NCBI GenBank assembly: GCA_026396275.1
Contig: JAPLXC010000002.1
Coordinates: 74,922 to 138,921, forward strand
DNA length: 64,000 bases
DNA from: Candidatus Moraniibacteriota bacterium
Lineage (GTDB): Bacteria; Patescibacteriota; Minisyncoccia; Moranbacterales; JAPLXC01
Reading direction: 5' to 3'
The position numbers and the translations under genes are program-made. Of this stretch, positions 7,663 through 29,436 are shown in pieces (within the stretch, counting starts at the first letter, position 1; the number at the start of each line of letters is the position of its first letter). Below the pieces are notes generated by a model. It made no database searches, was not told the DNA's origin, and worked only from the letters and a program-made list of their open reading frames with translations.

Positions 7663-7681
7663 GCCGATGTGGTGAAACCCG

Positions 7682-7713
7682 CGCACCAGTCCGCCAGCTG
7701 GCGGACTGGTGCG
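7682..7713 (+). terminator. perfect 14-bp-stem hairpin directly after the TPR gene (terminator-like, no T-run)
   Basis: cgcaccagtccgcc-agct-ggcggactggtgcg. Confidence 0.4.
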
Positions 7714-7748
7714 GAGCAAGTTGGCAGATTTAACCCATTATAGCTGGT

Positions 7749-7831: not shown

Positions 7832-7994
7832 CAAAATAAAAGACGCATCCCGCCTAGGCGGGACTCCCGCAAGAAATTGAGAGTTCGAATCCCTGCCCGT
7901 TGATTTTTAGCGGGGTCTCCCAAGGCACGAAATAAGCTGGACTAATGCAAAAATTAAGTTATAATAATGAAATCAATATTTAAAAGAAATAAAA

Positions 7995-9876: not shown

Positions 9877-10034
9877 TTTTTAGCGCCCAAGACGCAAAGC
9901 GGCATATTAACTGTTCACTTTACTAAGATTTGCGGATGTGGTGCCTGCCTGCTTGTCTCGCTAAAGCTATGGAGAAGCGGGCGGTCAGGGAACCCGGTAT
10001 ATTTACCCCGCATCAATTTCTGTGTTCTGAAGAA

Positions 10035-10118
10035 AGGGGACGTGGCGGAATTGGTATACGCGATAGGTTGAGGACCTATGCTCGCAAGAGCGTGAGGGTT
10101 CAAGTCCCTCCGTCCCCA
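10035..10118 (+). tRNA. tRNA-Leu(GAG)
   Basis: Acceptor ggggacg/cgtcccc. Anticodon arm atagg-ttGAGga-cctat. Long variable arm gctcgcaagagcgt. T-arm gaggg-ttcaagt-ccctc. Confidence 0.8.
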
Positions 10119-10282
10119 CACAGGAATTGGTGCGGGGCGCATATGCCCCAGTACTAAGTCCAGGGTGGACTAGTACGGGGTAAACTTGAGGTGCATGTGG
10201 GAGTAATCTCCCTAGAGGTTTTTACCCCGTATTTGGAGCGAAGCGACATAGTTCGGGGCAAATCCTCTCATCCGCACTTGAA

Positions 10283-10470
10283 GGATCCTTAGCTCAGTTG
10301 GTAGAGCGCTTCGCTTATTCACCCCGCACCAAAATTAAGGGCAATTAGCTCAGTTGGCTAGAGCGCTTCGTTTACACCGAAGATGTCGTAGGTTCGAGTC
10401 CTACATTGCCCACTAGAATTTGGTGCGGGGCAAACCGAAGATGTCGTAGGTTCGAGTCCTACAGGATCCA
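10283..10470 (+). pseudogene. interrupted tRNA-like gene 'X' (Val-like body). Its 5' half (10283-10320) and 3' half (10436-10470) have complementary acceptor strands ggatcct/aggatcc and are separated by a 115-nt insert that contains a complete tRNA-Val.
   Basis: 5' half: acceptor, D-arm gctcagttggtagagc, stem cttcg, loop cttattc. 3' half: cgaag, atgtc, T-arm gtagg-ttcgagt-cctac, aggatcc. The insert is bounded by the inverted repeat ccccgcaccaaaatt / aatttggtgcgggg. Confidence 0.55.
10339..10412 (+). tRNA. tRNA-Val(TAC), nested inside the split tRNA-like gene X
   Basis: Acceptor gggcaat/attgccc. Anticodon arm cttcg-ttTACac-cgaag. T-arm gtagg-ttcgagt-cctac. Confidence 0.85.
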
Positions 10471-10493
10471 CTAATAATGTTTTTTAAAATTTT

Positions 10494-10565
10494 GCCAGGC
10501 TAGCTCAGTGGTAGAGCGAAGGACTGAAAATCCTTGCGTCCCCAGTTCGATTCTGGGGCCTGGCA
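10494..10565 (+). tRNA. tRNA-Phe(GAA)
   Basis: Acceptor gccaggc/gcctggc. Anticodon arm aagga-ctGAAaa-tcctt. T-arm cccag-ttcgatt-ctggg. Confidence 0.85.
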
Positions 10566-10736
10566 CAATAGGCAAAATTTAGTATGGGGCAAGCTGAAAA
10601 CTTATGTCGGCAGTTTTTACCCCGTCGAATGATTGGGGCGATCCTGTCCCCAAGCACAACGCCAAGCATTCCACTATAACTAATATGATTAAGGAATGCT
10701 AATTACAGTAATGTTACTACTAAGTATTAGTAGTTA

Positions 10737-10809
10737 GGGTCCGTAGCTCAGCGGTTAGAGCGGCCGGCTCATAACCGGTTGGTCGCAAGTTCGAATCTTG
10801 CCGGACCCA
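10737..10809 (+). tRNA. tRNA-Met(CAT), elongator or tRNA-Ile2 (lysidine) type. Not initiator-like (G1:C72 pair).
   Basis: Acceptor gggtccg/cggaccc. Anticodon arm gccgg-ctCATaa-ccggt. T-arm gcaag-ttcgaat-cttgc. Confidence 0.75.
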
Positions 10810-10855
10810 CATAAAAAATTCAAAATTTAAAAATCAAAATGCAAAACTTAAGAAA

Positions 10856-10926
10856 GCGGAATTAGTATAGTGGTAGTACGCCACCTTGCCAAGGTGATGG
10901 CGCCGGTTCGATTCCGGTATTCCGCT
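10856..10926 (+). tRNA. tRNA-Gly(GCC)
   Basis: Acceptor gcggaat/attccgc. Anticodon loop ttGCCaa. T-arm gccgg-ttcgatt-ccggt. Confidence 0.8.
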
Positions 10927-11022
10927 CAATTTTAGGTTCGCTGCAGCACCGCTGAAGGGTGCTAAGCGCCCGGCATTCTTTAGCAGTACCGGGCGATTCC
11001 GCTCACTCGCTCTAAAAGAAAA

Positions 11023-11053
11023 ATTCCTCAAATGGTGAGGAATTTTTCTTTTT
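11023..11053 (+). terminator. Rho-independent terminator
   Basis: aattcctca-aatgg-tgaggaatt followed by TTTCTTTTT. Confidence 0.65.
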
Positions 11054-11100
11054 GTGTTAAAATGAGTCAAAACGTAACTTAGTGCGGTTAAACCTTTAAT

Positions 11101-11175
11101 TGCGACCGTAGTACAGTGGCAGTATACGACCTTCCCAAGGTTGAGACGTGGGTTCCCTGCCTGCCATTGCTCCAA
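11101..11175 (+). pseudogene. degenerate tRNA-Gly(CCC)-like copy
   Basis: Has a Gly-like D-arm gtacagtggcagtat and anticodon arm cgacc-ttCCCaa-ggttg, but the T-arm (gtgggttccctgcctg) and the acceptor 3' strand are degenerate. It aligns to the 3' half of the neighbouring split Gly gene. Confidence 0.4.
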
Positions 11176-11177
11176 AT

Positions 11178-11425
11178 GCGGATGTAGTATAGTGGTAGTG
11201 CCCCAGTACTAAACTTGCCTTACGACAAATTAATACGGGGCAGGCATAACCTTCCCAAGCCCCGCACTAAATCTGCACCGCACTTTGTGCGAGAATAGTA
11301 TAGTGGCATTACACTTGCTTCCCAAGCAAGAAACGCGGGTTCAATTCCCGTTTCTCGCTCCGTTATTTGTGCAGATTTTAGTGCGGGGCAAGGTTGAAGC
11401 GTGGGTTCGATTCCCATCATCCGCT
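11178..11425 (+). pseudogene. interrupted tRNA-Gly(CCC)-like gene. The 5' part (11178-11259) and 3' part (11389-11425) have complementary acceptor strands gcggatg/catccgc. It hosts a complete tRNA-Gly(CCC) and also carries an extra 45-nt hairpin insert after the D-arm.
   Basis: 5' part: gcggatg-ta-gtatagtggtagtg ... taacc-ttCCCaa-g. 3' part: caaggttg-aagc-gtggg-ttcgatt-cccat-catccgc-t. The insert is bounded by ccccgcactaaatctgcac / gtgcagattttagtgcgggg, with a 4-bp direct repeat caag at both junctions. Confidence 0.55.
11289..11359 (+). tRNA. tRNA-Gly(CCC), nested inside the split Gly(CCC)-like gene
   Basis: Acceptor gcgagaa/ttctcgc. Anticodon arm cttgc-ttCCCaa-gcaag. T-arm gcggg-ttcaatt-cccgt. 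Confidence 0.85.
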
Positions 11426-11531
11426 CAGGCATTTGGCAGGCGGGGATTCTCATATCCCGCTCAAAGATTCTCTGAAAAATTGGCTTATTTCAACCCCGAA
11501 TATTTTCCTAGAATAAGCCAAATTTAGACCA

Positions 11532-11556
11532 AAATCCCTTATTTAAGGGATTTTTT
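11532..11556. terminator. symmetric hairpin with T-runs (bidirectional terminator-like)
   Basis: aaatccctta-ttt-aagggattt, followed by TTTTTT. Confidence 0.55.
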
Positions 11557-11713
11557 GGTTTTCCAAGCTTGACTTTCTGCCTGCAATCTGCTAGCATGGT
11601 AGGTTGGCATAATATGCCTTTTTTGTTTGGGCTATTTGCCAGCCCCCTAAACCACAGAAGGTTCAGGGCAGGGCAGTTTCTGAAAAACGTGCCTTAACAA
11701 TTAATGATAGCTT

Positions 11714-12277
11714 ATGGAACTTATTAGTATAATCGCCACTCTGCCGATTGCTGGCGGGCTGACTTTCGGAACGCCAACCATAGTAGAGGAACCAATCAAT
11801 ACTAATACAAAAATAGAATTTGTGGTTGAGAAAAATATACAACTTAATAACGGTTTTGTTGAAAGCAAAAATAATATTCCATATAACTCCGAGAGCTATA
11901 AACCAGTGAAAGGCGAAGAAGAAATTAAAAGAGAAGAAAAACTTTCCAAGTGGGAAGAAAAGCAAGCTCATCTGAAAAGCAATCTTCCTAAAGAAAAATT
12001 TACTGGAAACTTCTCGGCTTATACTGCCGCCGCTGACGAGTGTGGAAAATCGGACGGGATTACCGCGAGCGGCCTTAAGGTTAAAGGAAAAAGAACCCTT
12101 GCCTGTCCTCCGCAGTATCCTTTCGGAACAAAAGTTAAAATTGAAGGATACGGAACTTATGTCTGCGAAGATCGCGGGGGAGCGATCAAGAGTAACCATT
12201 TTGACATTTATATGGAAACTAAATCTCAAGCTTTCGCTTTTGGAAGAAGGCATCTCGAAGCGGAAGTGGTGGATTAA
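11714..12277 (+). CDS. 3D-domain (MltA/RlpA-like double-psi beta-barrel) cell-wall-binding protein
   Basis: C-terminal region ...GLKVKGKRTLACPPQYPFGTKVKIEGYGTYVCEDRGGAIKSNHFDIYMET..., which is typical of the 3D domain. Confidence 0.5.
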   Translation: MELISIIATLPIAGGLTFGTPTIVEEPINTNTKIEFVVEKNIQLNNGFVESKNNIPYNSESYKPVKGEEEIKREEKLSKWEEKQAHLKSNLPKEKFTGNFSAYTAAADECGKSDGITASGLKVKGKRTLACPPQYPFGTKVKIEGYGTYVCEDRGGAIKSNHFDIYMETKSQAFAFGRRHLEAEVVD

Positions 12278-12287
12278 TCCATCCAAA

Positions 12288-12348
12288 TGTCATTCCGGGC
12301 TTGACCCGGAATCTAGAAAATTGGATTCCCGCCTTCGCGGGAATGACA
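12288..12348. mobile_element. MITE-like element (TGTCATYC...GRATGACA family), copy 2, intergenic
   Basis: tgtcattccgggcttgacccggaatc...cccgccttcgcgggaatgaca. It has the terminal inverted repeat and two internal hairpins. Confidence 0.55.
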
Positions 12349-12437
12349 TACTAACAAGCAAAAACACCCAAGGATTTTCCGAGGGTGTTTTTGTATTACC
12401 TTGTTAATTTTGGCTTGTTGGTATAAATTTGTTATAA

Positions 12438-12508
12438 GGTCCGGTGGCCGAGAAGTTAGGCAGAGGTCTGCAAAACCTCTTACAGCAGTGCAAATCTGCT
12501 CCGGACCT
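12438..12508 (+). tRNA. tRNA-Cys(GCA)
   Basis: Acceptor ggtccgg/ccggacc with U73 discriminator (the Cys identity element). Anticodon arm gaggt-ctGCAaa-acctc. T-arm agcag-tgcaaat-ctgct. Confidence 0.75.
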
Positions 12509-12533
12509 CAAAATTATAGTATGGTTTGTCCAA

Positions 12534-12621
12534 GCCCGGGTGATGGAATCGGCAGACATGAGGGACTTAAAATCCCTTGGATGAATAATCCGTGCGAGTT
12601 CGAGTCTCGCCCCGGGCACCA
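12534..12621 (+). tRNA. tRNA-Leu(TAA), CCA encoded
   Basis: Acceptor gcccggg/cccgggc. Anticodon arm aggga-ctTAAaa-tccct. Long variable arm. T-arm gcgag-ttcgagt-ctcgc. ACCA at the end. Confidence 0.8.
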
Positions 12622-12626
12622 AAATT

Positions 12627-12931
12627 ATGACCAATTATACAATAATCTCGAAATTCAGAAATAAAGAACAGGTAGAATATCTCACTCGAAAATTAAAAGA
12701 AAAAGGTAATACTTGTTATACACTTTTAAAAGAGACATGAAAGGACTAGAGGATTGTGAAAAAGTTATTATGCTTCTTCCGGGCGGAAACTCCGCACATA
12801 TTGAAGCTGGCATTGCTTATGGAATAGGCAAACCGCTTATATTGATAGGCGAACCAGAAAAACCAGATACTTTGTATCTGATATTTAAAGAGAGATATAA
12901 AACGATAGAGAAATTTTTGAAGAGTATTTAA
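12627..12931 (+). pseudogene. nucleoside 2-deoxyribosyltransferase-like (YtoQ-type) gene fragment, split by a frameshift
   Basis: Frame 1 (12627-12740) reads MTNYTIISKFRNKEQVEYLTRKLKEKGNTCYTLLKET* and an overlapping frame (12713..12931) reads ...LLPGGNSAHIEAGIAYGIGKPLILIGEPE.... Both pieces together are shorter than typical family members. Confidence 0.35.
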
Positions 12932-13581
12932 AACAATCTTTCCTGCTTATCTTCTTCTGGCTCTATTTTCATATTTTCAACCGCCGGATTTTCTTCCGGT
13001 TTCTTTGCCATTTCCAGAACTTTAGGAATTTTTTTGAAGTCCTCGATTAACACGCTTCGCATTCCGCCGTTATAGAGCGCAGCGGCGGGGTGGTAGAGGG
13101 CATAAAAGACCCATGTGCCAATCTCAGGGATATTTCTTCGTAGCGCTTTTCCGTGAATCTGGGAAATTTTTTGATTGGGCAAGAATCTTTCCATCGCGTG
13201 TTTTCCTAGAAGCACAATTAATTTCGGATCAATTATTTTAATTTGTTCCACAAGCCACGACCAGCAGGCCTCCACTTCTTCCGGAAGGGGATCGCGGTTT
13301 CCCGGCGGGCGACACTTGATTATATTAGCAATATAAGTATCCTCCCTTTTTATATCTATTGTCTCTAATAGTTCATCCAGAAATTTGCCGGCTGCTCCGA
13401 CAAATGGTCTTCCCAACTCATCTTCCCTTTGTCCTGGTCCTTCACCGATAAACATAATTTCGGCTTCAGCGTTTCCCTCGCCGGGAACAACCACCCGGCA
13501 GGTTTCACGTAAAATACACTGGTTGCATTTCATCATGCGGTCATTGAGTTCGTTTAGTTGTTCTTGTTTCCTTTTTGTCAT
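12928..13581 (-). CDS. udg: uracil-DNA glycosylase, family 4 (UdgA type)
   Basis: Motifs GEGPG(x7)GRPFVGAAG, CRPPGNR and HPAAALY. Conserved N-terminal Cys residues. The annotated start codon lies inside MITE copy 3, so an internal Met (MMKCNQC) may be the true start. Confidence 0.8.
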   Translation of the reverse strand: MTKRKQEQLNELNDRMMKCNQCILRETCRVVVPGEGNAEAEIMFIGEGPGQREDELGRPFVGAAGKFLDELLETIDIKREDTYIANIIKCRPPGNRDPLPEEVEACWSWLVEQIKIIDPKLIVLLGKHAMERFLPNQKISQIHGKALRRNIPEIGTWVFYALYHPAAALYNGGMRSVLIEDFKKIPKVLEMAKKPEENPAVENMKIEPEEDKQERLF

Positions 13582-13633
13582 CCTGAACTTGTTTCAGGAT
13601 CTAATTAGATTCCGGATCAGGTCCGGAATGACA
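13576..13633. mobile_element. MITE-like element (TGTCATYC...GRATGACA family), copy 3, overlapping the UDG start
   Basis: tgtcatcctgaacttgtttcaggatc...ccggatcaggtccggaatgaca. Confidence 0.55.
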
Positions 13634-13635
13634 AT

Positions 13636-14169
13636 CTAATTTAGATCGTGAATGCGAATTAATTCAAATTTATCATTGTCAGTATTCCACACTGCAAACG
13701 TCGGTGGGTATATTTCTCCAGCCACGTTTCCAGGATTGAGCATTTTGCAATTGTTTATAATTTCTTCCCACGGTTTGTGAGTATGTCCGTAAAAAACAAA
13801 ATCATACTTGCCAGTTTGGCAAAGCTCTTTGGCAGTTTCGGTGTAATGAGTAAAAGCAATTTTTCTTGCCCCGTGACCGCCTGGTTTTATGGGGTTATTT
13901 TCAATTTCTATTTCGCCATAATCTTTAAAAATCCAGGTATTTTTATACTTCTTGTCGAAGTCATAATTTTTAAGCTGCCCATCATCCATATTCCCGAAGC
14001 AATAATAAATTTCTCCCGAAAAATTATCATTCAAAAAATCTAGCGTTTCCATTGAAGCCAAATCCCCGCAGCAGATTATTTTTTTAATATTGTTATCCCT
14101 GCAATAATTCAAAACTTTTTCAAGGTTAGTTATGTTGTTGTGAATGTCGGAAATAATGGCAATTTTCAT
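13636..14169 (-). CDS. metallophosphoesterase (YfcE/MJ0936-like calcineurin-fold phosphodiesterase)
   Basis: MKIAIISDIHNN...CCGDL...GHTH metal-binding motifs. 177 aa. Confidence 0.7.
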   Translation of the reverse strand: MKIAIISDIHNNITNLEKVLNYCRDNNIKKIICCGDLASMETLDFLNDNFSGEIYYCFGNMDDGQLKNYDFDKKYKNTWIFKDYGEIEIENNPIKPGGHGARKIAFTHYTETAKELCQTGKYDFVFYGHTHKPWEEIINNCKMLNPGNVAGEIYPPTFAVWNTDNDKFELIRIHDLN

Positions 14170-14213
14170 GAAATTCTCTACTAATTACGAATTTGTACGA
14201 ATATACTAATTTT

Positions 14214-15038
14214 TTATTTATCTCTTAATGTTTTCAAAATCTTTATGTCTTCTTCCACTCCCGGCCATTCGGTTTCACAGAGCATATCCATGCTATTTTT
14301 CTTGGCGAAAGAAACTATATTTTTAAATGCTTCCAAGCCAATTTTGCCTTTTCCAATATGTTCATGACGGTCTTTTTGGGATCCGCAGTCCGATTGGCTA
14401 TCGTTGGCGTGGATTAATTTAATATTTTTCATCCCCAGTTCTTTGTCTATTCTTTTGAGAGTGTTTTCAAAATCAGTCCAATCATATCCTGATGCAAAGG
14501 AGTGTTGAGTATCCAAGCATATACCTGCGATAGTAACACTATTTACGCCCTTAATAATTTCTGCCAGTTCTTGTAAATTATCTCCGATAATTTCTCCTGC
14601 TCCAGCGCTGTTTTCTAAAAGTAATTTTGTATTTCCGTCATAACCTTCCAAAGATTTCTTTAACATCTCAATAGTTTTTTTGATTGCTTCTTTTTGTCCT
14701 AGCTCTTTGGCGGTGCCAATATGAGTCATTACGAATTTAGCGCCCAGCATATTTCCTCTTTCCAATTCGTCGCGAATAGTTTTAACGGAACCATAACGGA
14801 TGCGATTATTGAGTGAAGCTAAGTTAATGTAATAAGGAGTATGTATATAAACTTCCTTAATTTTGAATTTTAATTTTTGAATTTTAAATTGTTCACAAAT
14901 TTCATTTGTGAGTATTGGCGCTTTTCCTCCCTGTGGCGGGCGAGTAAAAATCTGAATAACTTCGCAACCCAAATTATGCCCGTTTTTTGGTGCGTTTTGG
15001 ATTCCTCCTGCTACTGAAACATGAGCGCCAATGTTCAT
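14214..15038 (-). CDS. nfo: endonuclease IV (AP endonuclease family 2)
   Basis: MNIGAHVSVAGGIQNAPKNGHNLGCEVIQIFTRPPQGG... and TIM-barrel Nfo motifs (HxxYLINLAS, HANDS). Has an in-frame AT-repeat insert (QFKIQKLKFKIKE). Confidence 0.8.
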   Translation of the reverse strand: MNIGAHVSVAGGIQNAPKNGHNLGCEVIQIFTRPPQGGKAPILTNEICEQFKIQKLKFKIKEVYIHTPYYINLASLNNRIRYGSVKTIRDELERGNMLGAKFVMTHIGTAKELGQKEAIKKTIEMLKKSLEGYDGNTKLLLENSAGAGEIIGDNLQELAEIIKGVNSVTIAGICLDTQHSFASGYDWTDFENTLKRIDKELGMKNIKLIHANDSQSDCGSQKDRHEHIGKGKIGLEAFKNIVSFAKKNSMDMLCETEWPGVEEDIKILKTLRDK

Positions 15039-15305
15039 AAATATTCCCCCGCGAATCTACAAATTTTGCTACAAATCTACAGATACTATGATTGTATTAT
15101 ACATTATTTCTGATTTATTCGTACGTTCGTACAGTTTAGTAATTCGCAGAGATTACACTATTTCCCATCCGTTTTCCGCCCCAGCACCATTTTTCAATAA
15201 AGTTATTTCTTAATAATAAGTTTATTGGACAAAACGGCTTCGCCTTTGATTTTTCATAATTGATAATCTGTGCTGAAAATGGTGCGGGGTAAATCTCCAC
15301 AATTT

Positions 15306-16265
15306 TTAAATAATTTCCCAGCCCTTGTCGGTTTCTACTATGCGACCCTTCACTTCAAATCCGCTGGCTAAGATATGCCCACCTCCCCCAAAATGCCGGG
15401 CAATAGCAGAAACATCCACTCCTTTATAATCCTCCGAGCGCAAGCTCCCTTTGATTACTCCACTCTCGCGTTCAGAAAGTATAAGAGAGAATTTTGTTCC
15501 AGGCACGGTGTTAAGAATAGACGCTAACTGGGCGATATCATCTGTGGAGGCATTACATCCCTCAATATCTTCTTTGGTAAGAGCGGTAATTATCATCCCG
15601 TTTTTAGGGTTGATTTTAGCTTTTTCAAAAGCCCTCCCCCATAGTTTGAGAGTGGAAATTTTCTTGTTGGCTAGTGCGGCATCAATAATTTTGGATAAAG
15701 AAATTCCCTTTCTCATCAGGGAAGAAGCAATTTCCATCACTCGGGCTGTCGTATTGGAATGCTGGAAGTTTCCCGTGTCGGATAAGATTCCCAGCATTAG
15801 GGAGGCGGCAATGTTTTTGCTTATTTGCTCATTGGTGAATTCAAGATAATCGTAAACTATTTCACATACCGAAGAATAAGAAGAATCAATAATATTAATA
15901 TCTCCTTTGAGAGTAATGTCGGGATGGTGGTCGAGAAGAACTATAACTTGGTTTGGAAGAAGTTGATTTTTGATTTTATCGAACCCTCTTTCCACGCTGT
16001 CTGCAGCGATAACCGTTTCGTAGGATTTAAGATCGAGATGGTCCGGATATTCAAATTGTGAAGGAAAGGCAGATCCCAAAAGAGGAGGAAGCGGGTCAAA
16101 ACAGGCAATGTCAGCCAGCTTCCTTTTGTCTTTTAAATATTCTTTTAACGCCAGGACAGATCCCACTGTGTCTCCATCAGGCCCGGAGTGGGCAACTAAT
16201 AGAATTTTGTTGGATTTTTTAATGACGTAACGCAAGGCATTAAATTCACGGGCGAATTTGTGCAT
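15306..16265 (-). CDS. nrnA: DHH-family phosphoesterase NrnA (bifunctional oligoribonuclease / pAp phosphatase)
   Basis: DHH motif (LLDHHPD), the SGPDGDTVGS metal site, and the GGGH motif of the DHHA1 domain. Confidence 0.7.
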   Translation of the reverse strand: MHKFAREFNALRYVIKKSNKILLVAHSGPDGDTVGSVLALKEYLKDKRKLADIACFDPLPPLLGSAFPSQFEYPDHLDLKSYETVIAADSVERGFDKIKNQLLPNQVIVLLDHHPDITLKGDINIIDSSYSSVCEIVYDYLEFTNEQISKNIAASLMLGILSDTGNFQHSNTTARVMEIASSLMRKGISLSKIIDAALANKKISTLKLWGRAFEKAKINPKNGMIITALTKEDIEGCNASTDDIAQLASILNTVPGTKFSLILSERESGVIKGSLRSEDYKGVDVSAIARHFGGGGHILASGFEVKGRIVETDKGWEII

Positions 16266-16366
16266 AAAATTACAGAATTTGGAATTCAGTATTTAGAATC
16301 AAGAATGGGAATTACGAATTATGAATCAAGAATATTATTTATTCAAAATTCTAAATTAAAAATTCA

Positions 16367-16720
16367 CTATTCTAATTCTATAAGTATTTTTTCCACCTCG
16401 TCGGCTTTTGATTCGGTTTTGTCGAGTTGGAATTCAATCCGTGGAAGCGGTTTTGTGGAAAGCTTTTTATTAAGAACGCCCTGAAGGCGGTACATTTCTT
16501 TTTTAAGCGTTTCCATAACATAATTAGCTTCGCGCTCGGGGAAAATACTCACGAATATCCGAGTATAGCGGAGATCAGGAGTAGTGTCAACTTTAGCCAC
16601 AGTGACAAAGACCCCGGGCTTGAGGTCAAGTTCCCGGGTTATAATTTCAGCCACCTGGCGCTTAATTAGTTTGTTTATTTTTTCAAGGCGATGAGACATA
16701 AAATTAAATCCAAATTTCAA
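16367..16720 (-). CDS. rbfA: ribosome-binding factor A
   Basis: RbfA KH-like signature ...RQVAEIITRELDLKPGVFVTVAKVDTTPDLRYTRIFVS.... Sits downstream of infB, which is the conserved operon context. Confidence 0.8.
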   Translation of the reverse strand: MKFGFNFMSHRLEKINKLIKRQVAEIITRELDLKPGVFVTVAKVDTTPDLRYTRIFVSIFPEREANYVMETLKKEMYRLQGVLNKKLSTKPLPRIEFQLDKTESKADEVEKILIELE

Positions 16721-16816
16721 AATCCAAATTTCAAATGAATTTAAAAATCCAAATTTTTAAAATTTTTTCATTTGAGTTTGATTTGAAATTTAAACTTTGG
16801 ATTTTGATTTTTTCGG

Positions 16817-18592
16817 TTAAAGCGTTCTTCTCTTCTCCTCTTCCTTATACACAATCAAAGCATCTCCCTCTTTAATCTTCACGTCTCCTTCAAAAGTGAT
16901 TCCGCATTCATTGCCCTGACTGACTTCATCAGTGTTCGCTTTATTTTGCTGAAGATTAGCTAATTTTCCTCTTCCAATTATTTCGCCGTCTCTTTTTACT
17001 TCAATCAGGGAGCCCTTTATTAATTTCCCTTCAGTTACTCTTCCTCCCACGATCATGTCGCGCTTGCCGGTTTTAAAAATTGCTAAAACATTTAACCTTC
17101 CTAAGTCCTCCCGGATAACTTCCGGCGGAAGCATATCAGCCATTTTGTTTTTTACGTCCTGAACAAGCTCATAAATAATTTTGAAGGACTTAATCTCCGT
17201 GCCGCTGGTTTCGGCCAGGCGCTTTGCCACTGGAGTGGCTTCTACGTTAAAACCATAAATTATAGCACTGGCGCTTTCAGCTAATTTTACGTCCGATTCA
17301 GTAATATTTCCCACGCCAGTACCAATATATTCAATTGACAGTTCTTCTGATTTAATTGCTTTCAAAATTTGTTCAACGGCTTCAAGCGACCCTTGGACAT
17401 CGGCCTTAATAACCAGGTTGAGTTTTTTTATTCCGGCTTCTTCCCTTTCTTGTTTTAATTTGGCTTTATCGCTTATCAATTTTCCGGCCAATTCCTTTGA
17501 TTTAAGCCGCGCTGCTGATTTCCCGCTCATTACCTGAAGAATATCGTTGGTCTGGGGCGTGGAATTTAGCCCCATGATCATAACTGGAGTTGACGGTCCG
17601 GCGCTCATAATGTTTCTTCCGATATAGTCCTCCATTTTTCTTATTCGTCCAAAACTTCCTCCAGCCACAACGTCCTGACCGATTTTAAGCGTTCCTGTTT
17701 TAATCAGGACTATTGCAACGGGACCCTTTTGTGGGTCAAGATGAGCTTCAAGGACAACAGCTAGGCCATCACGCTTTGAATCAGCTTTAAAATCCTCAAC
17801 TTCAGCCAGGAGAATAATTTTTTCCAGAAGTTCGTCAATGCCAATATTTTTCTTGGCGCTGATTTCAGCACTCATAATCTCCCCGCTCCACTCTTCAAGA
17901 AGAATTCCATTGTCAGCCAATTCCTGCTTCACTTTCGCAATATTAGCTCCTGGTTTATCAATTTTGTTAACAGCGACAATTGTTGGAATCTTTTTTTCTT
18001 TCAGGTATTCAATGACTTCTTTGGTTTGAGGGCGGACTCCGTCGTCAGCGGCCACCACCAGGACGGCGATATCCGCGATGCTAACGCCGCGCTCCCGCAT
18101 GGCAGAGAATGCTTCATGCCCGGGAGTATCAACAAAAGTGATGGTAATCCCCTTTTTCTTTACTTGGTAAGCGCTGATATGCTGGGTAATTCCTCCGGCT
18201 TCACCGGCCACCACGTTAGTTTTTCGGATTGTATCAAGCAGAGTCGTTTTTCCGTGATCCACATGTCCTAATATGGTAACCACCGGCGGGCGCGGCTGGA
18301 GATTTTTTCCCGATTCTTTTTCTTTGCGACAGATTTCAACCAGTTTTTCAAGAGTGATTACATCGGCGGCGGAGGACTCCAGGTCTTCTTCGGTTTTAAA
18401 CCCCAGATCCTGGGCAATAATACTGGCTGTTTCAAAGTCAATTTCCTCATTGATGGTCGCCAGTATTTTGTTTTTCAAAAGTTCCATAATAATCCGGGAA
18501 ACAGGGAATCCCAGCAACTCGCTAAAGCGCTTGACTGTAACCGATGACGGAATTCTTACCGTCTTTTCAGTTGTTGATTTTTGAATTTCCAT
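16817..18592 (-). CDS. infB: translation initiation factor IF-2
   Basis: GTPase G1 motif VTILGHVDHGKTTLLD, DTPGH, NKID. Domains II and C-terminal beta-barrels. 591 aa. Confidence 0.9.
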   Translation of the reverse strand: MEIQKSTTEKTVRIPSSVTVKRFSELLGFPVSRIIMELLKNKILATINEEIDFETASIIAQDLGFKTEEDLESSAADVITLEKLVEICRKEKESGKNLQPRPPVVTILGHVDHGKTTLLDTIRKTNVVAGEAGGITQHISAYQVKKKGITITFVDTPGHEAFSAMRERGVSIADIAVLVVAADDGVRPQTKEVIEYLKEKKIPTIVAVNKIDKPGANIAKVKQELADNGILLEEWSGEIMSAEISAKKNIGIDELLEKIILLAEVEDFKADSKRDGLAVVLEAHLDPQKGPVAIVLIKTGTLKIGQDVVAGGSFGRIRKMEDYIGRNIMSAGPSTPVMIMGLNSTPQTNDILQVMSGKSAARLKSKELAGKLISDKAKLKQEREEAGIKKLNLVIKADVQGSLEAVEQILKAIKSEELSIEYIGTGVGNITESDVKLAESASAIIYGFNVEATPVAKRLAETSGTEIKSFKIIYELVQDVKNKMADMLPPEVIREDLGRLNVLAIFKTGKRDMIVGGRVTEGKLIKGSLIEVKRDGEIIGRGKLANLQQNKANTDEVSQGNECGITFEGDVKIKEGDALIVYKEEEKRRTL

Positions 18593-18596
18593 AATT

Positions 18597-19103
18597 CTAA
18601 ACTTTTTCTTCTTTAATCGGGCTGGCGATTTTTATCGCTTGTTTTTCTTCTTCCGTCAGCGGATATTTTTTGGACTCTCCCCTGATAACGGGCTTAGCGT
18701 ATACCCGAGTTCCTTCCCGGGTATGAAGAGAAGAAATTACAATGCCGGAATTTTTTCCATCAAGAAGCGCAATAGCAAAACTCTGATCTCCGCCTATATC
18801 TTTGAAAGGATTAAAACGAATCACTCCTATTTTATGCAGTCCCCGAAATGAAAGCGCGTTGATTTTATTTGATATTTCGAAAAGTTCCTGAATTTCTTTG
18901 TCCAGTTCTTTAAGGGATTTTGAGTGACTGGCGATAAGCGCTTCCAGGTTTTGACCGTCTTTTCCGGCGAAAAATAATTCACTTCTTTTGTTTATTGATC
19001 TTATTTGTAATAGGTTAAAAATGCCAAAGACAATGGCAAGAATTCCCAAAGACAGGGTGCTTATTATCAGTATTGTTATATTGGATTGGACCCAGTCATT
19101 CAT
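18597..19103 (-). CDS. small membrane-anchored protein (DUF4446-like) upstream of infB
   Basis: N-terminal TM followed by a conserved ...IGVIRFNPFKDIGGDQSFAIALLD...LHTREGTRVYAKPV... region. Part of the nusA-infB operon neighbourhood. Confidence 0.4.
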   Translation of the reverse strand: MNDWVQSNITILIISTLSLGILAIVFGIFNLLQIRSINKRSELFFAGKDGQNLEALIASHSKSLKELDKEIQELFEISNKINALSFRGLHKIGVIRFNPFKDIGGDQSFAIALLDGKNSGIVISSLHTREGTRVYAKPVIRGESKKYPLTEEEKQAIKIASPIKEEKV

Positions 19104-19346
19104 AACGTTTTTGATAACTAGAGCTTATTTCACGTTAGCATTTATTTCCCCTTGTGTAAAGAAAAAAAGGCAAATGGCGGTTTTTCTAGAACCCGTAAGA
19201 AAGCGGAGGGTACAGGAGTTGAACCCGTAATCCGCTAGGCGGGAAACCGCATTTTCCGCCAAAGGTGGACCAGCCGTTGGCTGGCGAGTTATATAAGCGA
19301 AAGAGGTGAGATTTTCACCCCGCACCTATAAAAATTTTATAAATTT

Positions 19347-19580
19347 GCGGCGGGAGAGGGATTCGAACCCCCGGTACCCTTTCGGATACACCTGATTTCG
19401 AGTTCCCGCACAAAGCGGAAGGAGTGAGATTCGAACTCACGGTCCCGTTTCCGAGACACCGCATTTCGAGTGCGGCCCATTCAACCACTCTGGCATCCTT
19501 CCACTATATGCGGGACGCAGCAGGCCTACGTGTCCCGCACCAATTTTTGGTGCGGGATTCAACCACTCTGGCATCCCGCC
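19347..19580 (-). pseudogene. interrupted tRNA-Ser(CGA)-like outer gene. The 5' piece (19557-19580; acceptor ggcggga plus D-arm) and the 3' piece (19347-19413; anticodon loop, variable arm, T-arm, acceptor tcccgcc) flank the intact tRNA-Ser(CGA).
   Basis: Acceptor strands ggcggga/tcccgcc are complementary. The D-arm is identical to that of the inner Ser gene. The CCCGCACC/GGTGCGGG inverted repeat flanks the insert. Confidence 0.5.
19416..19502 (-). tRNA. tRNA-Ser(CGA)
   Basis: The reverse complement folds as: acceptor ggaagga/tccttcc, D-arm ccagagtggttgaatgg, anticodon arm ccgca-ctCGAaa-tgcgg, long variable arm gtctcggaaacgggacc, T-arm gtgag-ttcgaat-ctcac. Confidence 0.8.
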
Positions 19581-19599
19581 AAAATTTTGGTGCGGGGCG

Positions 19600-19800
19600 G
19601 GCTCACAAAGGGATTGCTCCCTTACGGCTTTTTCTCGACCCCGTAAGAAAGCGAAGGGTATAAGAGTTGAACCTGTGAGGGGATTGCTCCCCAACCGCAT
19701 TTCGAGTGCGGCGCATTAGACCACTCTGCCAACCCCCCGCTTCTCTACGGGGCGAGGCCGCTTCCTTTATTGAATCTCGGCCACTCTTCCAATTATATAA
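19600..19800 (-). repeat. array of further degenerate tRNA-Ser-like fragments (minus strand)
   Basis: A second ccgca-ctCGAaa-tgcgg anticodon arm at 19698-19715; duplicated variable-arm hairpins ggggagcaatcccc / gggagcaatccc; an unusual T-loop ttcaact; and a class-II-like 5' fragment ggaagag-tg-gccgagattc. Confidence 0.4.
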
Positions 19801-20538: not shown

Positions 20539-21954
20539 ATGCAATCAAAAATAAAAATACTGGTAGCTTTCATAGTCCTTACTTCTTTGTTTTTTTTCTC
20601 GGGTTGCTTGAAGAAAAAGGAAACCGTTTATAAAGTTAATCTGGAAATCTGGGGCGTTTTTGACAACTCCGATGCCTATGGAAAAATTGCCCAAGCATAC
20701 CGGGAAATAAATCCTTTTGTCGGTGAAATAAAATACCGCAAGTTCGAGGCGGATAATTACAAGAGAGATCTTCTTGACGCTCTGGCTTCCGGACAGGGGC
20801 CGGACATTTTTTTCTTCCACAATACTTGGCTTCCTTCTTTTGCTGATAAAGTCGAGCCGGCTCCCGATTGGCTTCTGGGAGAGCAGGAATTTCGTCAAAA
20901 TTTTGTGGATGTAGCCGCTAATGATTTTTTGGACAAAAGCAAAGTATACGCCGTGCCGCTAAGCGTTGATTCACTGGCACTTTACTATAATAAAGATTTA
21001 TTCAATGCGGAAGGAATTACCTCCCCTCCTGCCACCTGGAAAGAGTTAGTAGAAGATGTTAAACGGCTTACCAAAATCGATCAGTTTGGAAACATCGTCC
21101 AGCAGGGAGCGGCTCTGGGAACAGCTTACAATATCAATCGGTCCACCGATGTTCTGGGTTTGATAATGATGCAAAAAGGTGCCCAAATGATCAATGAAGA
21201 CAGAACTCAAGCTGCCTTTGGCTATCCTGTTACCGTTGGCGAAAAATCCATTCAAGCGGGAGAAGAAGCATTTGATTTTTACACGCAGTTTGCCCGCTCC
21301 AGCTCGCCCCAATACGGCTGGAATTCGCGGATGCATTATTCCATTGATTCTTTTTTTGAAGGAACAGCCGCGATGATGATCAACTATTCTTGGCACTATC
21401 CGACCATCAAAAGCAAAAATTCAAAGCTGAATTTTGCTGTTGCTCCCGTTCCTCAATTCCAGGGAACCCCTCCGGTCAATTACGCTAATTACTGGGGGCT
21501 GGCGGTGGCTAAAAATAAAATAATTTCTTCTCCTTCTAATCCGCAATTGACAGGAAGTGAAGAAGTGGTGCCGGACAACAAAGTGCGTATTCATGAGGCC
21601 TGGCAATTTTTGAAATTTTTGGCGATAAGAAACAACGGAAAAATTACTCTGGTAAACGGCATCACCGGAAACAGCAAGGAATTCCCCGTCAGCATTGATC
21701 CGGTGGTTGAATACCTGAAAGAAACCGGAAATCCGGCGGCGCGAAGGGACATTATTGAAAAACAAAAAAGCGACCCAATTCTCGGCTCCTTTGTTTATGG
21801 CAATTTAATCGCCAAAAACTGGTATCAAACCGAACCGGAAGCCATTGAAACAATACTGGCCGAAGCCATTGATTCGGTTAACCGGGGAAAGATGACTGTC
21901 CGCGACGCGCTGGAGCTGGCCGAAACGCGAGTGAGCCAGCTAATGAGAAAGTAA
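20539..21954 (+). CDS. lipoprotein, extracellular solute-binding protein (ABC-transporter SBP family 1-like)
   Basis: Signal peptide with lipobox (FFFSGC) and SBP-like size and composition (471 aa). No adjacent permease genes are in the window. Confidence 0.45.
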   Translation: MQSKIKILVAFIVLTSLFFFSGCLKKKETVYKVNLEIWGVFDNSDAYGKIAQAYREINPFVGEIKYRKFEADNYKRDLLDALASGQGPDIFFFHNTWLPSFADKVEPAPDWLLGEQEFRQNFVDVAANDFLDKSKVYAVPLSVDSLALYYNKDLFNAEGITSPPATWKELVEDVKRLTKIDQFGNIVQQGAALGTAYNINRSTDVLGLIMMQKGAQMINEDRTQAAFGYPVTVGEKSIQAGEEAFDFYTQFARSSSPQYGWNSRMHYSIDSFFEGTAAMMINYSWHYPTIKSKNSKLNFAVAPVPQFQGTPPVNYANYWGLAVAKNKIISSPSNPQLTGSEEVVPDNKVRIHEAWQFLKFLAIRNNGKITLVNGITGNSKEFPVSIDPVVEYLKETGNPAARRDIIEKQKSDPILGSFVYGNLIAKNWYQTEPEAIETILAEAIDSVNRGKMTVRDALELAETRVSQLMRK

Positions 21955-21997
21955 TTTTTCTTTATTGCTAATAATTATTAATATCAACTAATTCCCT

Positions 21998-22609
21998 ATG
22001 AATTTTAAAAAATATTATTTAATAGCGACTGCCAGTGTTATTCTCGCCTTAATTTTTCCTTTTGTTTCTTTAGCCCAATGCAAGGCGGAAGGAAATGTAA
22101 TAGAGTTTTGCAATCCTCTCCGGTTCAACACGGTGCAGGAAGTTTTAGCGAGCTTAATGGCTTCCCTTCAAGGAGTAATTGTAGTCATCTCTATTATTTT
22201 CATAATTATCGGGGCGGTGTTTTACATTACTTCGGGCGGGAGCGAAGATCGGATAAAAACCGCCAAGAAAGCCATTCTTGCCTCAATGATCGGACTAGCT
22301 ATTGGAATTGCGGCACCGACATTCCTAAAGGAAATATCAAGCATCTTAGGATGGACAAATCAGCCACCGGAGTTACAACAGGCGAAAAGCATTGCCGAAA
22401 TAGCTCTTAGTGTCCTGAATTTTCTTCTGGGAATTGTCGGGGCTCTGGCGCTCATTATGATGATAATTGGGGGAATTATGTATCTCACCGCAGCGGGAAA
22501 CGAGGACCGAATTGATGCAGGCAAAAAGATTTTCAAGTTTTCCCTAATTGGAATTGCCGTGGCGCTGGCATCGCTGGTTATTATCAGACAAATTGCCTTG
22601 TTTTTTTAA
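21998..22609 (+). CDS. T4SS-type pilin (TrbC/VirB2-like) with two tandem pilin domains
   Basis: Signal peptide, then two copies of the hydrophobic-YxTxGG(S/N)EDRI(x)AKK-hydrophobic module (FYITSGGSEDRIKTAKKAILASMIGLAIGI and MYLTAAGNEDRIDAGKKIFKFSLIGIAVAL). Confidence 0.6.
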   Translation: MNFKKYYLIATASVILALIFPFVSLAQCKAEGNVIEFCNPLRFNTVQEVLASLMASLQGVIVVISIIFIIIGAVFYITSGGSEDRIKTAKKAILASMIGLAIGIAAPTFLKEISSILGWTNQPPELQQAKSIAEIALSVLNFLLGIVGALALIMMIIGGIMYLTAAGNEDRIDAGKKIFKFSLIGIAVALASLVIIRQIALFF

Positions 22610-22641
22610 TCAATATTTTTTAACGCAAAGAATTTAGACCA

Positions 22642-23097: not shown

Positions 23098-23185
23098 AAA
23101 AATCAAGATTCTAAATCAAAATTAAAAAATTTTTAAGTTCTAAGGTCTCTTAATTTCAATTTTTTATCTTTTTGCATTTTGATAT

Positions 23186-23890: not shown

Positions 23891-23894
23891 AATT

Positions 23895-29408: not shown

Positions 29409-29436
29409 TTGACAAATTATGCCAGTTTGATATAAT
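29409..29436 (+). promoter_or_regulatory. sigma70-like promoter for the TrmB-family gene
   Basis: TTGACA, 16-nt spacer, TATAAT. A second TTGACG box lies 30 nt downstream. Confidence 0.5.

Follow-up and report, generated by a model that had tools for sequence, protein, structure and literature searches.

Inverted repeats at tRNA genes of a Moranbacterial genome as the probable ends of small elements that replace tRNA genes of the same anticodon

What is the role of a GC-rich inverted repeat that brackets tRNA genes in a Candidatus Moraniibacteriota genome? The window analysed here, a 64,000-nucleotide stretch of contig JAPLXC010000002.1, contains several pairs of this motif, which the initial annotation had read as either a processing stem extending the acceptor helix or the terminal repeat of a mobile tRNA cassette. 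The motif itself is real: all quoted copies were verified with their positions, and CCCCGCAY occurs nine times in the window versus 3.02 ± 1.78 expected from 100 dinucleotide-preserving shuffles, none of which had nine matches. All nine lie at three spots. The repeat brackets tRNA-Leu(GAG) (10036–10119, plus strand; CCCCGCATC at 10006–10014 pairs with GGTGCGGGG at 10129–10137), tRNA-Val(TAC) (CCCCGCACCAAAATT, 10322–10336, with AATTTGGTGCGGGG, 10417–10430), and tRNA-Gly(CCC) (CCCCGCACTAAATCTGCAC, 11260–11278, with GTGCAGATTTTAGTGCGGGG, 11369–11388). At 19318–19326, CCCCGCACC pairs with GGTGCGGGG at 19589–19597 around a minus-strand nest of tRNA-Ser(CGA) genes, within which the hairpin TCCCGCACCAATTTTTGGTGCGGGA occurs at 19533–19557. 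The proposed association with tRNA ends holds for these 4 of the 14 intact tRNA genes in the window, with decayed versions at two more (Leu-TAG and Phe), but not for all of them. The pair placed at 15180 and 15282 and described as lacking a tRNA was confirmed as such: CCCCAGCACC at 15179 pairs with GGTGCGGGG at 15281–15289, and this element (15179–15293, plus strand, with tail TAAA) lies in the spacer between a DHH and an AP-endonuclease gene.

Each of the four bracketed tRNA genes is nested in another tRNA gene of identical anticodon that is itself interrupted, and the termini of the inserts are those of the repeat. When the segment from repeat to repeat was removed in silico together with a 4-nt tail, with boundaries picked to fit, ARAGORN recognized the outer genes as tRNA-Gly(CCC), tRNA-Leu(GAG), and tRNA-Ser(CGA); all three rebuild perfectly, one of them only after four excisions. 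Inserts located in tRNAs have the 4-nt tail in place of a target duplication, and their boundaries are not uniform (0+4, 4+0, 5+0, or 2-nt overlaps). Short hairpins with cassette-like termini occupy loops of the broken outer tRNAs. Nesting reaches up to three copies for Gly-CCC and is three deep for Ser-CGA, a locus of four copies and one further fragment. This arrangement had gone unnoticed in the initial annotation.

On the plus strand, the outer tRNA-Leu(GAG) (9932–10276) is divided into five pieces (9932–9943, 9990–10001, 10138–10145, 10185–10220, and 10259–10276) by four inserts, without which it is an 87-nt tRNA-Leu(GAG). These inserts are a second-family hairpin (CCTGCC...GGTCAGG, 9944–9989) in the D loop; Cassette E1 (10002–10137), in which TTTA is followed by arms at 10006–10024 and 10119–10137 around the intact tRNA; a hairpin CCCCAGTAC...GTACGGGG with tail TAAA (10146–10184) in the anticodon loop; and TTTA with a hairpin CCCCG...CGGGG (10221–10258) in the T loop between T55 and C56. 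The arms of Cassette E1 are 19–20 nt long, and both of their mismatches are T opposite G. Cassette E2 (10322–10430, plus strand), whose arms enclose the intact tRNA-Val(TAC) (10339–10413), is flanked by the junction 4-mers TTCA (10318–10321) and CAAA (10431–10434) and splits the anticodon loop of an outer Val-like tRNA (10283–10470, plus strand); excision yields a cloverleaf, in which no choice of boundaries restores the Val anticodon. Downstream of the intact Phe gene, an outer tRNA-Phe 3′ remnant (10576–10656, plus strand) comprises a decayed arm AATTTAGTATGGGG and anticodon-side and T-arm pieces, with a hairpin TTTACCCCG...TGGGG (10616–10638) in its T loop. Upstream of the intact Leu(TAG), an outer tRNA-Leu 5′ remnant (7663–7736, plus strand) consists, in order, of GCCGATGTGGTGAAAC, a hairpin CCGCGCACC...GGTGCGGAG with CAAG (7679–7720), TTGGCAGA, TTTA, and a decayed repeat arm.

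The Gly locus, also on the plus strand, is built similarly. Cassette E3 (11260–11392), with tail CAAG after its right arm, holds the intact tRNA-Gly(CCC) (11289–11361) and sits in the anticodon loop of a second-generation outer tRNA-Gly(CCC) (11178–11427), whose D arm contains a hairpin (11201–11244, CCCC...GGGG followed by CAGG); without both inserts, a 72-nt tRNA-Gly(CCC) results. This gene lies within the remains of a third-generation copy (11102–11463), the 5′ part (11102–11155) and 3′ part (11446–11463) of which are parted by the repeat CCTGCCTGCCA (11156–11166) and TGGCAGGCGGGG (11434–11445).

The Ser locus lies on the minus strand. Its putatively ancestral tRNA-Ser(CGA), 'Ser-0' (19297–19790), is found in three pieces (19753–19790, 19602–19633, and 19297–19317), interrupted in the anticodon loop by Cassette C1 (19639–19752; arms CCCCGTAGAGAAGCG and CGCTTTCTTACGGGG) and in the T arm by Cassette A (19318–19597; arms 19581–19597 and 19318–19334). 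Cassette C1 surrounds tRNA-Ser(CGA) 'C1' (19651–19738), which scores 41.7 bits and has a T stem broken by a mismatch. Cassette A surrounds tRNA-Ser(CGA) 'A' (19348–19580), itself in three pieces (19558–19580, 19521–19528, and 19348–19403), with a cargo-less hairpin TCCCGCACC...GGTGCGGGA and tail CACG in its D loop (19529–19557); two excisions turn it into an 88-nt tRNA-Ser(CGA) according to ARAGORN. The second of its inserts, Cassette B (19404–19520; arms TCCCGCA and TGCGGGA), holds the innermost and top-scoring copy, the intact tRNA-Ser(CGA) 'B' (19415–19502; 56.5 bits). A further tRNA-Ser 3′ half is located at 19203–19260, and its acceptor 3′ strand ACCCTCCGC is identical in the relative L127.

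Four related Moranbacteria have a single plain tRNA-Ser(CGA) and no repeats at the orthologous site, where the gene order methyltransferase, tRNA-Ser, DUF4446, IF-2 is conserved. The three outermost Ser pieces of the window align to these plain genes over their full length, 'Ser-0' being orthologous to that of L122. The cassette alleles, in turn, agree with resident alleles of related lineages: 'A' is similar to that of L125 and 'C1' to that of L127, and the inner Val shares its acceptor stem with the plain resident Val in L017 and L105. The outer Val is similar to the resident Val of L009, and the acceptor stems of inner and outer alleles differ by paired changes. The uninterrupted orthologous site, together with the recurrence of the repeat around differing cargo across many Patescibacteria genomes, supports the idea of a terminal repeat of a mobile tRNA cassette and extends it, the termini being the ends of segments inserted into older tRNA genes.

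At least 120 loci carry the repeat pair, practically all of them in Patescibacteria MAGs, and every named one belongs to Patescibacteria; among 2.9 million viral contigs scanned, a single match turned up, and it looked like chance. The consensus at both element ends is CCCCGCAC(Y)AA...TT(R)GTGCGGGG, with 9–11 nt near-invariant across distant classes of the Patescibacteria, or candidate phyla radiation (CPR). The elements measure 25 to about 290 nt, form hairpins, and have no genes of their own; a tRNA is present in 39 of 124, with 20 different anticodons. The flanks match the inner tRNA in sense orientation in 27 of these 39 and in antisense orientation in none, versus a match rate of 16% to other tRNA types. 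Inner and outer anticodons are always identical, inner and outer genes always share their orientation, and the position of the insert is constant per tRNA type across distant classes. Two Doudnabacteria show reciprocal nesting: one genome has allele X within Y, the other has Y within X. In some nests the inner tRNA has no surrounding repeat, so that the repeat either is not strictly required for nesting or was lost afterwards. Chimeric joining at repeated tRNA sequence during assembly or binning is a vanishingly improbable source of this architecture: nothing specific speaks for it beyond the capacity of repeated tRNA genes to confuse assemblers, and more than 120 independent assemblies, produced by different groups with different assemblers, show the same arrangement and perfectly paired repeats at its flanks, as do 64 JGI metagenome contigs. 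The repeats are probably the ends of small, gene-free DNA elements that are widespread in CPR, the tRNA-bearing cassettes among them inserting into and replacing resident tRNA genes of the same anticodon.

Could the repeat instead be an RNA processing signal only, such as an RNase III stem freeing the tRNA from a long transcript, the nested fragments having arisen by local duplication and decay instead of the insertion of foreign DNA? About half of the cassettes have their stem directly against the 5′ end of the tRNA, and the predicted folds, a long terminal stem plus a cloverleaf, are strong (z-scores −5.6 to −8.1). In several apparently young nests, moreover, the inner and outer copies are almost identical internally, their differences lying mostly in the acceptor stem, for which gene conversion must be assumed additionally if the cassettes moved. 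However, the plain Ser site in four relatives, the match of inner alleles to residents of other lineages, and the paired acceptor-stem changes do not fit duplication in place, and the near-invariance of 9–11 nt across CPR classes suggests protein recognition, or spread, over a mere helix. We consider this explanation unlikely. The processing stem that had been proposed stands as a predicted fold but not as a general feature of pre-tRNAs, because most tRNAs in the window lack the repeat and many tRNA-less elements are bounded by it. The long stem may aid release of the inner pre-tRNA from the outer transcript.

The perfect rebuilding of three outer tRNAs in the window would also be expected if the inserts were true tRNA introns, some of them containing a tRNA, with a hypothetical CPR endonuclease and ligase acting at the base of the CCCC/GGGG helix and one transcript giving both tRNAs. 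Once the hairpin and 4 nt are removed, outer Gly, outer Leu with its four inserts, and Ser 'A' form perfect cloverleaves that have the correct anticodon, and the same holds in L022, L038, and L016. The shared orientation, stems that stay paired through changes on both sides, and G-T mismatches (12 fit sense RNA versus 5 that fit antisense RNA) agree with such introns too. Against this, splicing would bring no gain where inner and outer anticodons are identical, the boundaries vary, and several outer genes cannot be rebuilt: the anticodon is not recoverable in outer Val, Pro, and Asp genes, outer Met genes have no T arm, and some others lack the entire anticodon arm. The junctions show no bulge-helix-bulge, and elements of this kind are also present at non-tRNA sites, flanked by direct repeats. 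Not one of 64 metagenome loci that contain a T-loop hairpin proved to be a tRNA broken by the hairpin alone; at 41 of them, an intact tRNA of the same orientation lies immediately upstream. A search of 1.03 Mb containing 163 intact tRNAs, which recovered four of five built controls, gave at most one doubtful case. We regard the intron reading as quite improbable; judging by their sequences, and by the broken T stem of 'C1', the outer copies look dead rather than spliced and are presumably not expressed as tRNAs. Group I introns of bacterial tRNAs also sit in the anticodon loop, but the present elements are far too small, have neither a conserved ribozyme core nor an Rfam intron match, and often leave an outer tRNA that cannot be restored.

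Archaeal tRNA introns occur at non-canonical positions and have been transposed between tRNAs in Thermoproteales, and GC-rich complementary leaders join the parts of split and tri-split tRNAs (Fujishima et al. 2009, 2010, via PMC10714607). The cassettes resemble these systems in having short inserts in the D, anticodon, and T loops, several per tRNA, a helix formed by GC-rich complementary flanks, and related inserts in different tRNAs. Unlike the archaeal systems, they have a bacterial host and no bulge-helix-bulge, many hold an entire tRNA of matching anticodon inside an outer gene that looks dead, and members of the family occur outside tRNAs.

Identical 4-nt flanks (direct repeats TTGA, TCAA, TTCA, or CAAG) were seen in 23 of 124 elements versus 0.5 expected; some tRNA-less elements have them at non-tRNA sites, and genuine direct repeats are seen in both orientations among the ACT-type copies. 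These repeats, the terminal inverted repeats, the small size, and the several copies per genome would suit classical MITEs mobilized by a DDE transposase encoded elsewhere, inserting at random into tRNA loops, with selection keeping matching cargo; the accumulation of hairpins in dead tRNAs points to a strong preference for certain targets. This possibility, to which we give a minor but appreciable chance, overlaps with the explanation we favor and differs solely in how the element moves. MITEs, REP/REPIN, Correia, and Rickettsia palindromic elements are small, non-coding, and multicopy, with terminal inverted repeats or a hairpin and in some cases short flanking direct repeats, all of which the cassette family shares. 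Yet its cargo is a putatively functional tRNA gene nested in a tRNA gene of the same anticodon, the 4-nt tail replaces the target duplication in tRNA-located copies, and the insert position is fixed per tRNA type. Copies are alike only over about 11–20 nt per end (two in one genome have identical 17-nt arms), with unrelated interiors unlike the recent burst of a typical MITE, and no autonomous partner with the same ends and a transposase is known or was seen. Neither the elements themselves, nor the sequence between motif pairs, nor 20 scanned window ORFs (of about 88 of at least 100 aa) yielded a gene for a transposase, integrase, or other enzyme.

Two other mobile systems invite comparison. 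Elements of the IS200/IS605 type and their small derivatives move as single-stranded hairpins and insert beside a specific tetranucleotide without duplication; the cassettes likewise depend on a hairpin, have a conserved 4-nt tail at its foot, and lack target duplications in tRNAs, but their single long terminal stem contrasts with the two different subterminal hairpins of those elements, the ACT-type copies have direct repeats, and no Y1 transposase was seen. Tyrosine-integrase elements insert into tRNA genes at the anticodon loop, T loop, or 3′ end and restore the displaced 3′ part. The cassettes also target anticodon and T loops, apparently keep tRNA function, and leave a fragment of the old tRNA, but at about 110–135 nt they have no integrase gene and bring a whole tRNA, and both old halves flank the new gene. 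Classical integrase-type tRNA footprints were also observed in L009 and L098. We found no published description of nested same-anticodon tRNA cassettes in the literature.

For the insertion and replacement that we favor, we prefer a scenario in which recombination at the conserved tRNA halves carries entire nests, cassette and outer halves together, from one related genome to another. Such transfer would account for why the tRNA types match, why the insert position is constant for a given type, why the junction 4-mers are not target duplications, and why no enzyme gene was found. True transposition by a trans-acting enzyme is possible, and transposition in trans is likely for the tRNA-less copies with 4-nt direct repeats. 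One subfamily would carry a complete tRNA gene and enter the D, anticodon, or T loop of a resident tRNA gene with the same anticodon and orientation; the resident gene would be disrupted, and the cassette tRNA, presumably driven by the resident promoter, would assume its role. The broken outer copy would then decay and gain more hairpins of the same kind, tolerated only because that gene is already dead, and repeated rounds of insertion would give rise to the Russian-doll loci of the window.

The GC-rich motifs quoted in the initial annotation are all present in the window sequence. CCCCGCAY occurs nine times there against 3.0 expected, a count reached in none of 100 shuffles, and all nine matches belong to inverted pairs with arms of 12–20 nt. 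These pairs bracket tRNA-Leu(GAG), tRNA-Val(TAC) and tRNA-Gly(CCC) and, on the minus strand, a nest of tRNA-Ser(CGA); a further pair at 15179–15289 bounds a 110-nt stretch without a tRNA, and the hairpin at 19533–19557 has no cargo. The outermost 7 nt of the arms (CCCCGCA) are set by the search pattern; beyond them, two-sided changes keep the arms complementary, as in the terminal inverted repeats of miniature inverted-repeat transposable elements (MITEs). The predicted RNA fold of the cassettes, as we call repeat-bounded inserts carrying a whole tRNA, is a long terminal stem around the cloverleaf, with z-scores of −5.6 to −8.1. That such a stem serves pre-tRNA processing, one of two readings proposed initially, is not supported as a general account, since the repeat also bounds elements without a tRNA, such as that at 15179–15289. 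A second hairpin family, with ends CCTGCC.../...GGCAGG (or CCCGCC/GGCGGG), occurs in the same kinds of sites within broken tRNAs, at 9944–9989, at 11156–11166 / 11434–11445 and at about 7893–7914, and also in L017, L048 and L115 (L-numbers denote loci or contigs from other genomes compared with the window).

Every bracketed tRNA in the window lies inside another tRNA gene of identical anticodon, a nesting that the initial annotation had overlooked. Upstream of the Val cassette, GGATCCTTAGCTCAGTTGGTAGAGCGCTTCG... is the 5′ half of a Val-like tRNA, and ...CCGAAGATGTCGTAGGTTCGAGTCCTACAGGATCCA downstream is the 3′ half of this outer gene, the older, interrupted copy around the cassette's own, inner tRNA. 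Removal of 11201–11244 and 11260–11392 from 11178–11427 leaves a 72-nt tRNA-Gly(CCC) recognized by ARAGORN; 9932–10276 without four inserts gives an 87-nt tRNA-Leu(GAG), and 19348–19580 (minus strand) without two inserts an 88-nt tRNA-Ser(CGA). The excision boundaries were picked to fit, and the rebuilt tRNAs thus demonstrate the presence of the pieces, not their joining in the cell. A third, more decayed Gly(CCC) layer encloses the second via the separate repeat CCTGCC.../...GGCAGG. The inserts follow a junction rule: each comprises the CCCC-to-GGGG hairpin and, on one flank, a tetranucleotide, which is CAAG, CAGG, TAAA or CACG, or else TTTA (the reverse complement) if placed on the opposite flank. 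At tRNA cassettes the left tetranucleotide is often TTCA or TTTA and the right one CAAG, CAGG or CAAA, and at least eight short hairpins with CCCC/GGGG ends occupy loops of outer genes in the window. ARAGORN did not detect the outer genes when introns of 0–400 nt were allowed.

The window is bacterial DNA. Its genes include one for an IF-2 of bacterial type, which contains an IF2_N domain, and others for a CCA-adding enzyme, an RluD-like pseudouridine synthase, ribosomal protein L19 and a 3D-domain protein. The closest relatives of its IF-2 share 83% identity, and those that are named belong to Candidatus Moranbacteria (Patescibacteria, or candidate phyla radiation, CPR); exact-protein lookup for the window proteins returned one 959-nt contig as its sole match. 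ARAGORN and Rfam agree on 14 tRNAs, and no other RNA family was found in the window by Rfam at gathering score or by ARAGORN. A perfect 17-bp hairpin lies 3′ of tRNA-Gly(GCC) at 11014–11052 and a terminator-like hairpin 3′ of the Gly(CCC) nest at 11531–11554, and on account of these the tRNA array may be transcribed as two units. The GC content ranges from 0.35 to 0.51; its highest part (0.49–0.51) contains a single ORF of 4152 aa (36742–49200, plus strand), and its minimum (0.35, at 28000–30000) adjoins a gene for an ORF6N-domain protein (27890–28402), a stretch that may be foreign DNA. On the plus strand at 20539–25706, a solute-binding protein gene is followed by T4SS-type pilin, PrgI-like, TraC-like and VirB4-like (DUF87) genes, assigned by synteny with L122, L124 and L127, and then by a ComM-like Mg-chelatase gene at 26337–27863. 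These genes could form a DNA-transfer or uptake apparatus relevant to the travel of tRNA alleles.

Comparison with relatives indicates the direction of change. The gene order methyltransferase, tRNA-Ser, DUF4446, IF-2, RbfA, DHH is conserved in L122, L124, L125 and L127, in which IF-2 is 71–78% identical to that of the window. At the orthologous Ser site, a lone, plain tRNA-Ser(CGA) free of repeats and fragments is present in each of L122, L125 and L127. L124 likewise has one intact tRNA-Ser there, with a duplicated promoter and 5′ fragment in front of it; the promoter region and the first 18 nt of tRNA-Ser(CGA) are repeated ~110 nt upstream of the intact gene (L124 9100–9336), a rearrangement of a different kind at the same locus. 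The spacer of L124 is too diverged to serve as an empty site for the intergenic element at 15179–15293. The window pieces 19753–19790, 19602–19633 and 19297–19317 together align with the full-length tRNA-Ser of L122, and this old, L122-like gene carries cassette C1 in its anticodon loop and cassette A in its T arm; the tRNA-Ser of A is split in turn by a hairpin and the innermost cassette, B. Ser A is similar to the allele resident in L125, and C1 to the one resident in L127. B, at 56.5 bits, is the sole fully sound gene of the locus; C1 has a mismatch in its T stem and scores 41.7 bits. For the tRNA array at 9.9–11.5 kb, which has no synteny in L127, L009, L017, L105 and L043 were compared instead. 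The acceptor stem of the inner Val (GGGCAAT/ATTGCCC) is that of the plain resident Val in the syntenic relatives L017 and L105, and the outer Val resembles the plain Val of L009. The plain sites in relatives and these allele matches argue that the nests are derived states produced by insertion and that the inserted tRNAs are alleles living as ordinary genes in related lineages. The inserted DNA ends where the repeat ends. The other initial reading, a mobile tRNA cassette, is supported and much extended by the plain orthologous sites and the coincidence of insert and repeat ends.

Several lines of evidence suggest that the outer genes are not alive. Their anticodon is always that of the inner gene, which makes them redundant. 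In silico, precise removal restores a tRNA from the outer Gly, Leu and Ser A genes and from L016, L022 and L038; it fails for the outer Val, L043, L063 and L081, in which no choice of boundary restores the anticodon, for the Met outer genes, which have no T arm, and for the nests from which the whole anticodon arm is absent. A minority reading takes the inserts as introns spliced from the outer genes. Earlier hairpin scans were dominated by chance long-range repeats and chimeras of inner and outer genes; a filtered scan, which recovered 4/5 built controls, gave one doubtful case of a hairpin as the sole interruption of a tRNA in 1.03 Mb with 163 intact tRNAs. As an independent test, capable of failing, metagenomes were scanned for the T-loop hairpin GTTTTTACCCCG...GGGGCRAWYC. 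None of the 64 loci found is a tRNA broken by the hairpin alone; at 41 of them an intact tRNA of the same orientation begins 79–235 nt upstream, and in the inspected cases the hairpin is located in the remnant of a replaced copy. Hairpin insertion is therefore tolerated only in the presence of a replacement tRNA. This pattern is the one predicted for gene-destroying DNA insertions, not for spliced introns.

The junctions bear on the same question. A bulge-helix-bulge motif is a 4-bp helix with a 3-nt bulge at either end, located at the exon–intron junctions; whereas tRNA introns of the archaeal type have this motif, the junction helices of the cassettes are continuous, and the Leu(GAG) cassette at 10002–10137 has a symmetric 3 × 3 internal loop with no staggered bulges. 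No splicing endonuclease or ligase was seen among the ORFs scanned in the 64-kb window. Group I introns in tRNAs have a conserved ribozyme core and typically exceed 200 nt; Rfam gave tRNA matches only, whether for the window (gathering score) or for eight loci (E ≤ 0.01).

The elements are widespread. With the pattern CCCCGCAYYAA, 85–115 nt, TTRRTGCGGGG and one genome per species, at least 120 loci match, compared with ~17 expected by chance in a rough estimate by hand, and 2.9 million viral contigs contain a single match to the same pattern, chance-like and within a coding region. Among the matches listed, the named sources are all Patescibacteria, of many classes, apart from a few records labelled Bdellovibrionales or Gammaproteobacteria. 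L017, L105 and further MAGs of the CAY/CAZ series carry elements under the labels 'uncultured Bdellovibrionales' or 'Gammaproteobacteria'; these labels appear to be wrong at least for L017 and L105, since both are syntenic with this Moranbacteria-like window. Still among the matches listed, 39/124 elements carry a tRNA, with 20 different anticodons, and by eye nearly all 39 sit between tRNA halves of the same type. In alignments, 27/39 of these listed elements have flanks matching their own inner tRNA in sense and 0/39 in antisense, the rate for other tRNA types being 16%. Single excision of the repeat-bounded element rebuilds a tRNA in only 13/124 of the matches listed; most outer genes are either decayed or interrupted by several inserts. 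The insertion point of Leu cassettes in Doudna-, Moran- and Parcubacteria is the D-arm site GGTAKA|CRC, and the cassettes seen for Val, Glu, Gly and Met lie in the anticodon loop. In two Doudnabacteria, L004 and L047, nesting is reciprocal: the Leu(CAG) that is inner in L004 equals the outer copy of L047 at 61/64 and 16/16 positions, and the one that is inner in L047 matches the outer copy of L004 at 53/64 and 14/15. The phenomenon is a CPR-wide way of tRNA gene replacement and apparently undescribed; our literature collection, which is incomplete, yielded no description of nested or interrupted tRNA genes in CPR.

No tRNA is present in the other 85/124 elements among the matches listed, and the tRNA-less elements matched no Rfam family. 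About 30 of those listed (~110 nt; alignment A1, a subset of L002–L120) are alike in having an invariant core (CGCCT...CGGCT), a second hairpin that varies and a covarying terminal stem, in which pairing is kept through two-sided changes. In L018, L019 and L040 such elements lie inside broken tRNAs in sense orientation. The group may represent an undescribed structured RNA or protein-binding module. A different set, with ends CCCCGCACTAAC (ACT-type), has true 4-nt direct repeats (TTGA, TCAA or TTCA), in either orientation, and one genome has two copies with identical 17-nt arms. Some ACT-type copies (L009 1300–1460; L024, L026, L033, L041) abut TTGAC(A), which resembles a promoter −35 box, and in L009 the putative L19 promoter is immediately preceded by two copies in tandem.

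Among known systems, archaeal multi-intron and split tRNAs, MITE- or REP-like hairpins, and integrase-borne islands that restore the tRNA end come closest, and each class fails in at least one defining feature tested. Those found in the literature are archaeal tRNA introns and split tRNAs and CPR rRNA introns (PMC10714607). MITEs have a target-site duplication of fixed length; here, identical 4-nt flanks were found in 23/124 of the elements listed (0.5 expected), and the tRNA-located copies have a 4-nt tail and no duplication. The autonomous, transposase-encoding partner of a MITE, with matching ends, was not seen in the loci examined, and the interiors of the copies are unrelated. REP/REPIN hairpins and those derived from IS200/IS605 have an adjacent conserved tetranucleotide and no duplication; here, CAAG, CAGG, TAAA or CACG is found on one side of the tRNA-located hairpins, and the ACT-type copies carry direct repeats. 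No Y1 (HUH) transposase or RAYT was seen among the 20 window ORFs scanned. Tyrosine-integrase elements contain the integrase gene and carry only the 3′ part of the tRNA, as a direct repeat. The cassettes, in contrast, contain a whole tRNA flanked by both halves of the old gene, and no integrase gene is present in the inserts (25–290 nt). At L009 480–704 and L098 1548–1671 a plain tRNA is followed ~50–125 nt on by a copy of its own last 17–18 nt, which would be the footprint expected of a classical integrase-type insertion since almost wholly deleted. Three further ideas were rejected: a DNA-uptake signal because ~9 copies in 64 kb are too few, a dif/Xer site because only six bases are common, and an attL/attR footprint because the acceptor strands of remnant and intact gene differ.

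Inner and outer genes have a common orientation and anticodon, and the inserts are located in loops. No credible ORF occurs inside the elements; no transposase or integrase was seen among the window ORFs scanned or in the loci between motif pairs, and the loci examined contain no large or transposase-size ORF between distant pairs. We favor a reading in which the whole nest would spread by recombination via the conserved tRNA halves. Such spread would fit the match to the same tRNA, the constant position of the inserts, the non-duplicated junction tetranucleotides and the pattern of young nests, in which inner and outer genes are near-identical inside and their acceptor stems differ by paired changes, as expected if gene conversion of the interior cannot reach the ends. 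In some nests the inner tRNA is not bracketed by the repeat, so the repeat is either lost with age or not essential for nesting. The copies with direct repeats likely moved by transposition in trans. A more tentative and rather doubtful possibility is a new class of selfish element, in which a hairpin-wrapped tRNA gene homes into, kills and replaces the resident gene for the same tRNA. Targeting would then operate via homology with the tRNA itself and not via an element-encoded enzyme, and the drive could be biased repair or selection by agents attacking particular tRNA alleles; the reciprocal nesting in the two Doudnabacteria, X in Y and Y in X, fits this picture.

For annotation, the nests mean that tRNA finders report the innermost gene only, missing the fossil layers, and may miscall decayed copies such as Ser C1. 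Should the minority intron reading be true, protein-dependent tRNA splicing would have its first bacterial example. To our knowledge, CPR are not culturable and direct evidence of horizontal exchange among them is scarce; the layers are a record of past tRNA alleles and of gene flow between CPR lineages. If the selfish-element picture is true, tRNA alleles circulate horizontally across CPR, displacing one another repeatedly. The cassette would be a mobile unit that lacks genes of its own and persists by putting its own copy in place of an essential gene. Its mode of movement could point to a new recombination route, or to a host enzyme recognizing the conserved CCCCGCAC end.
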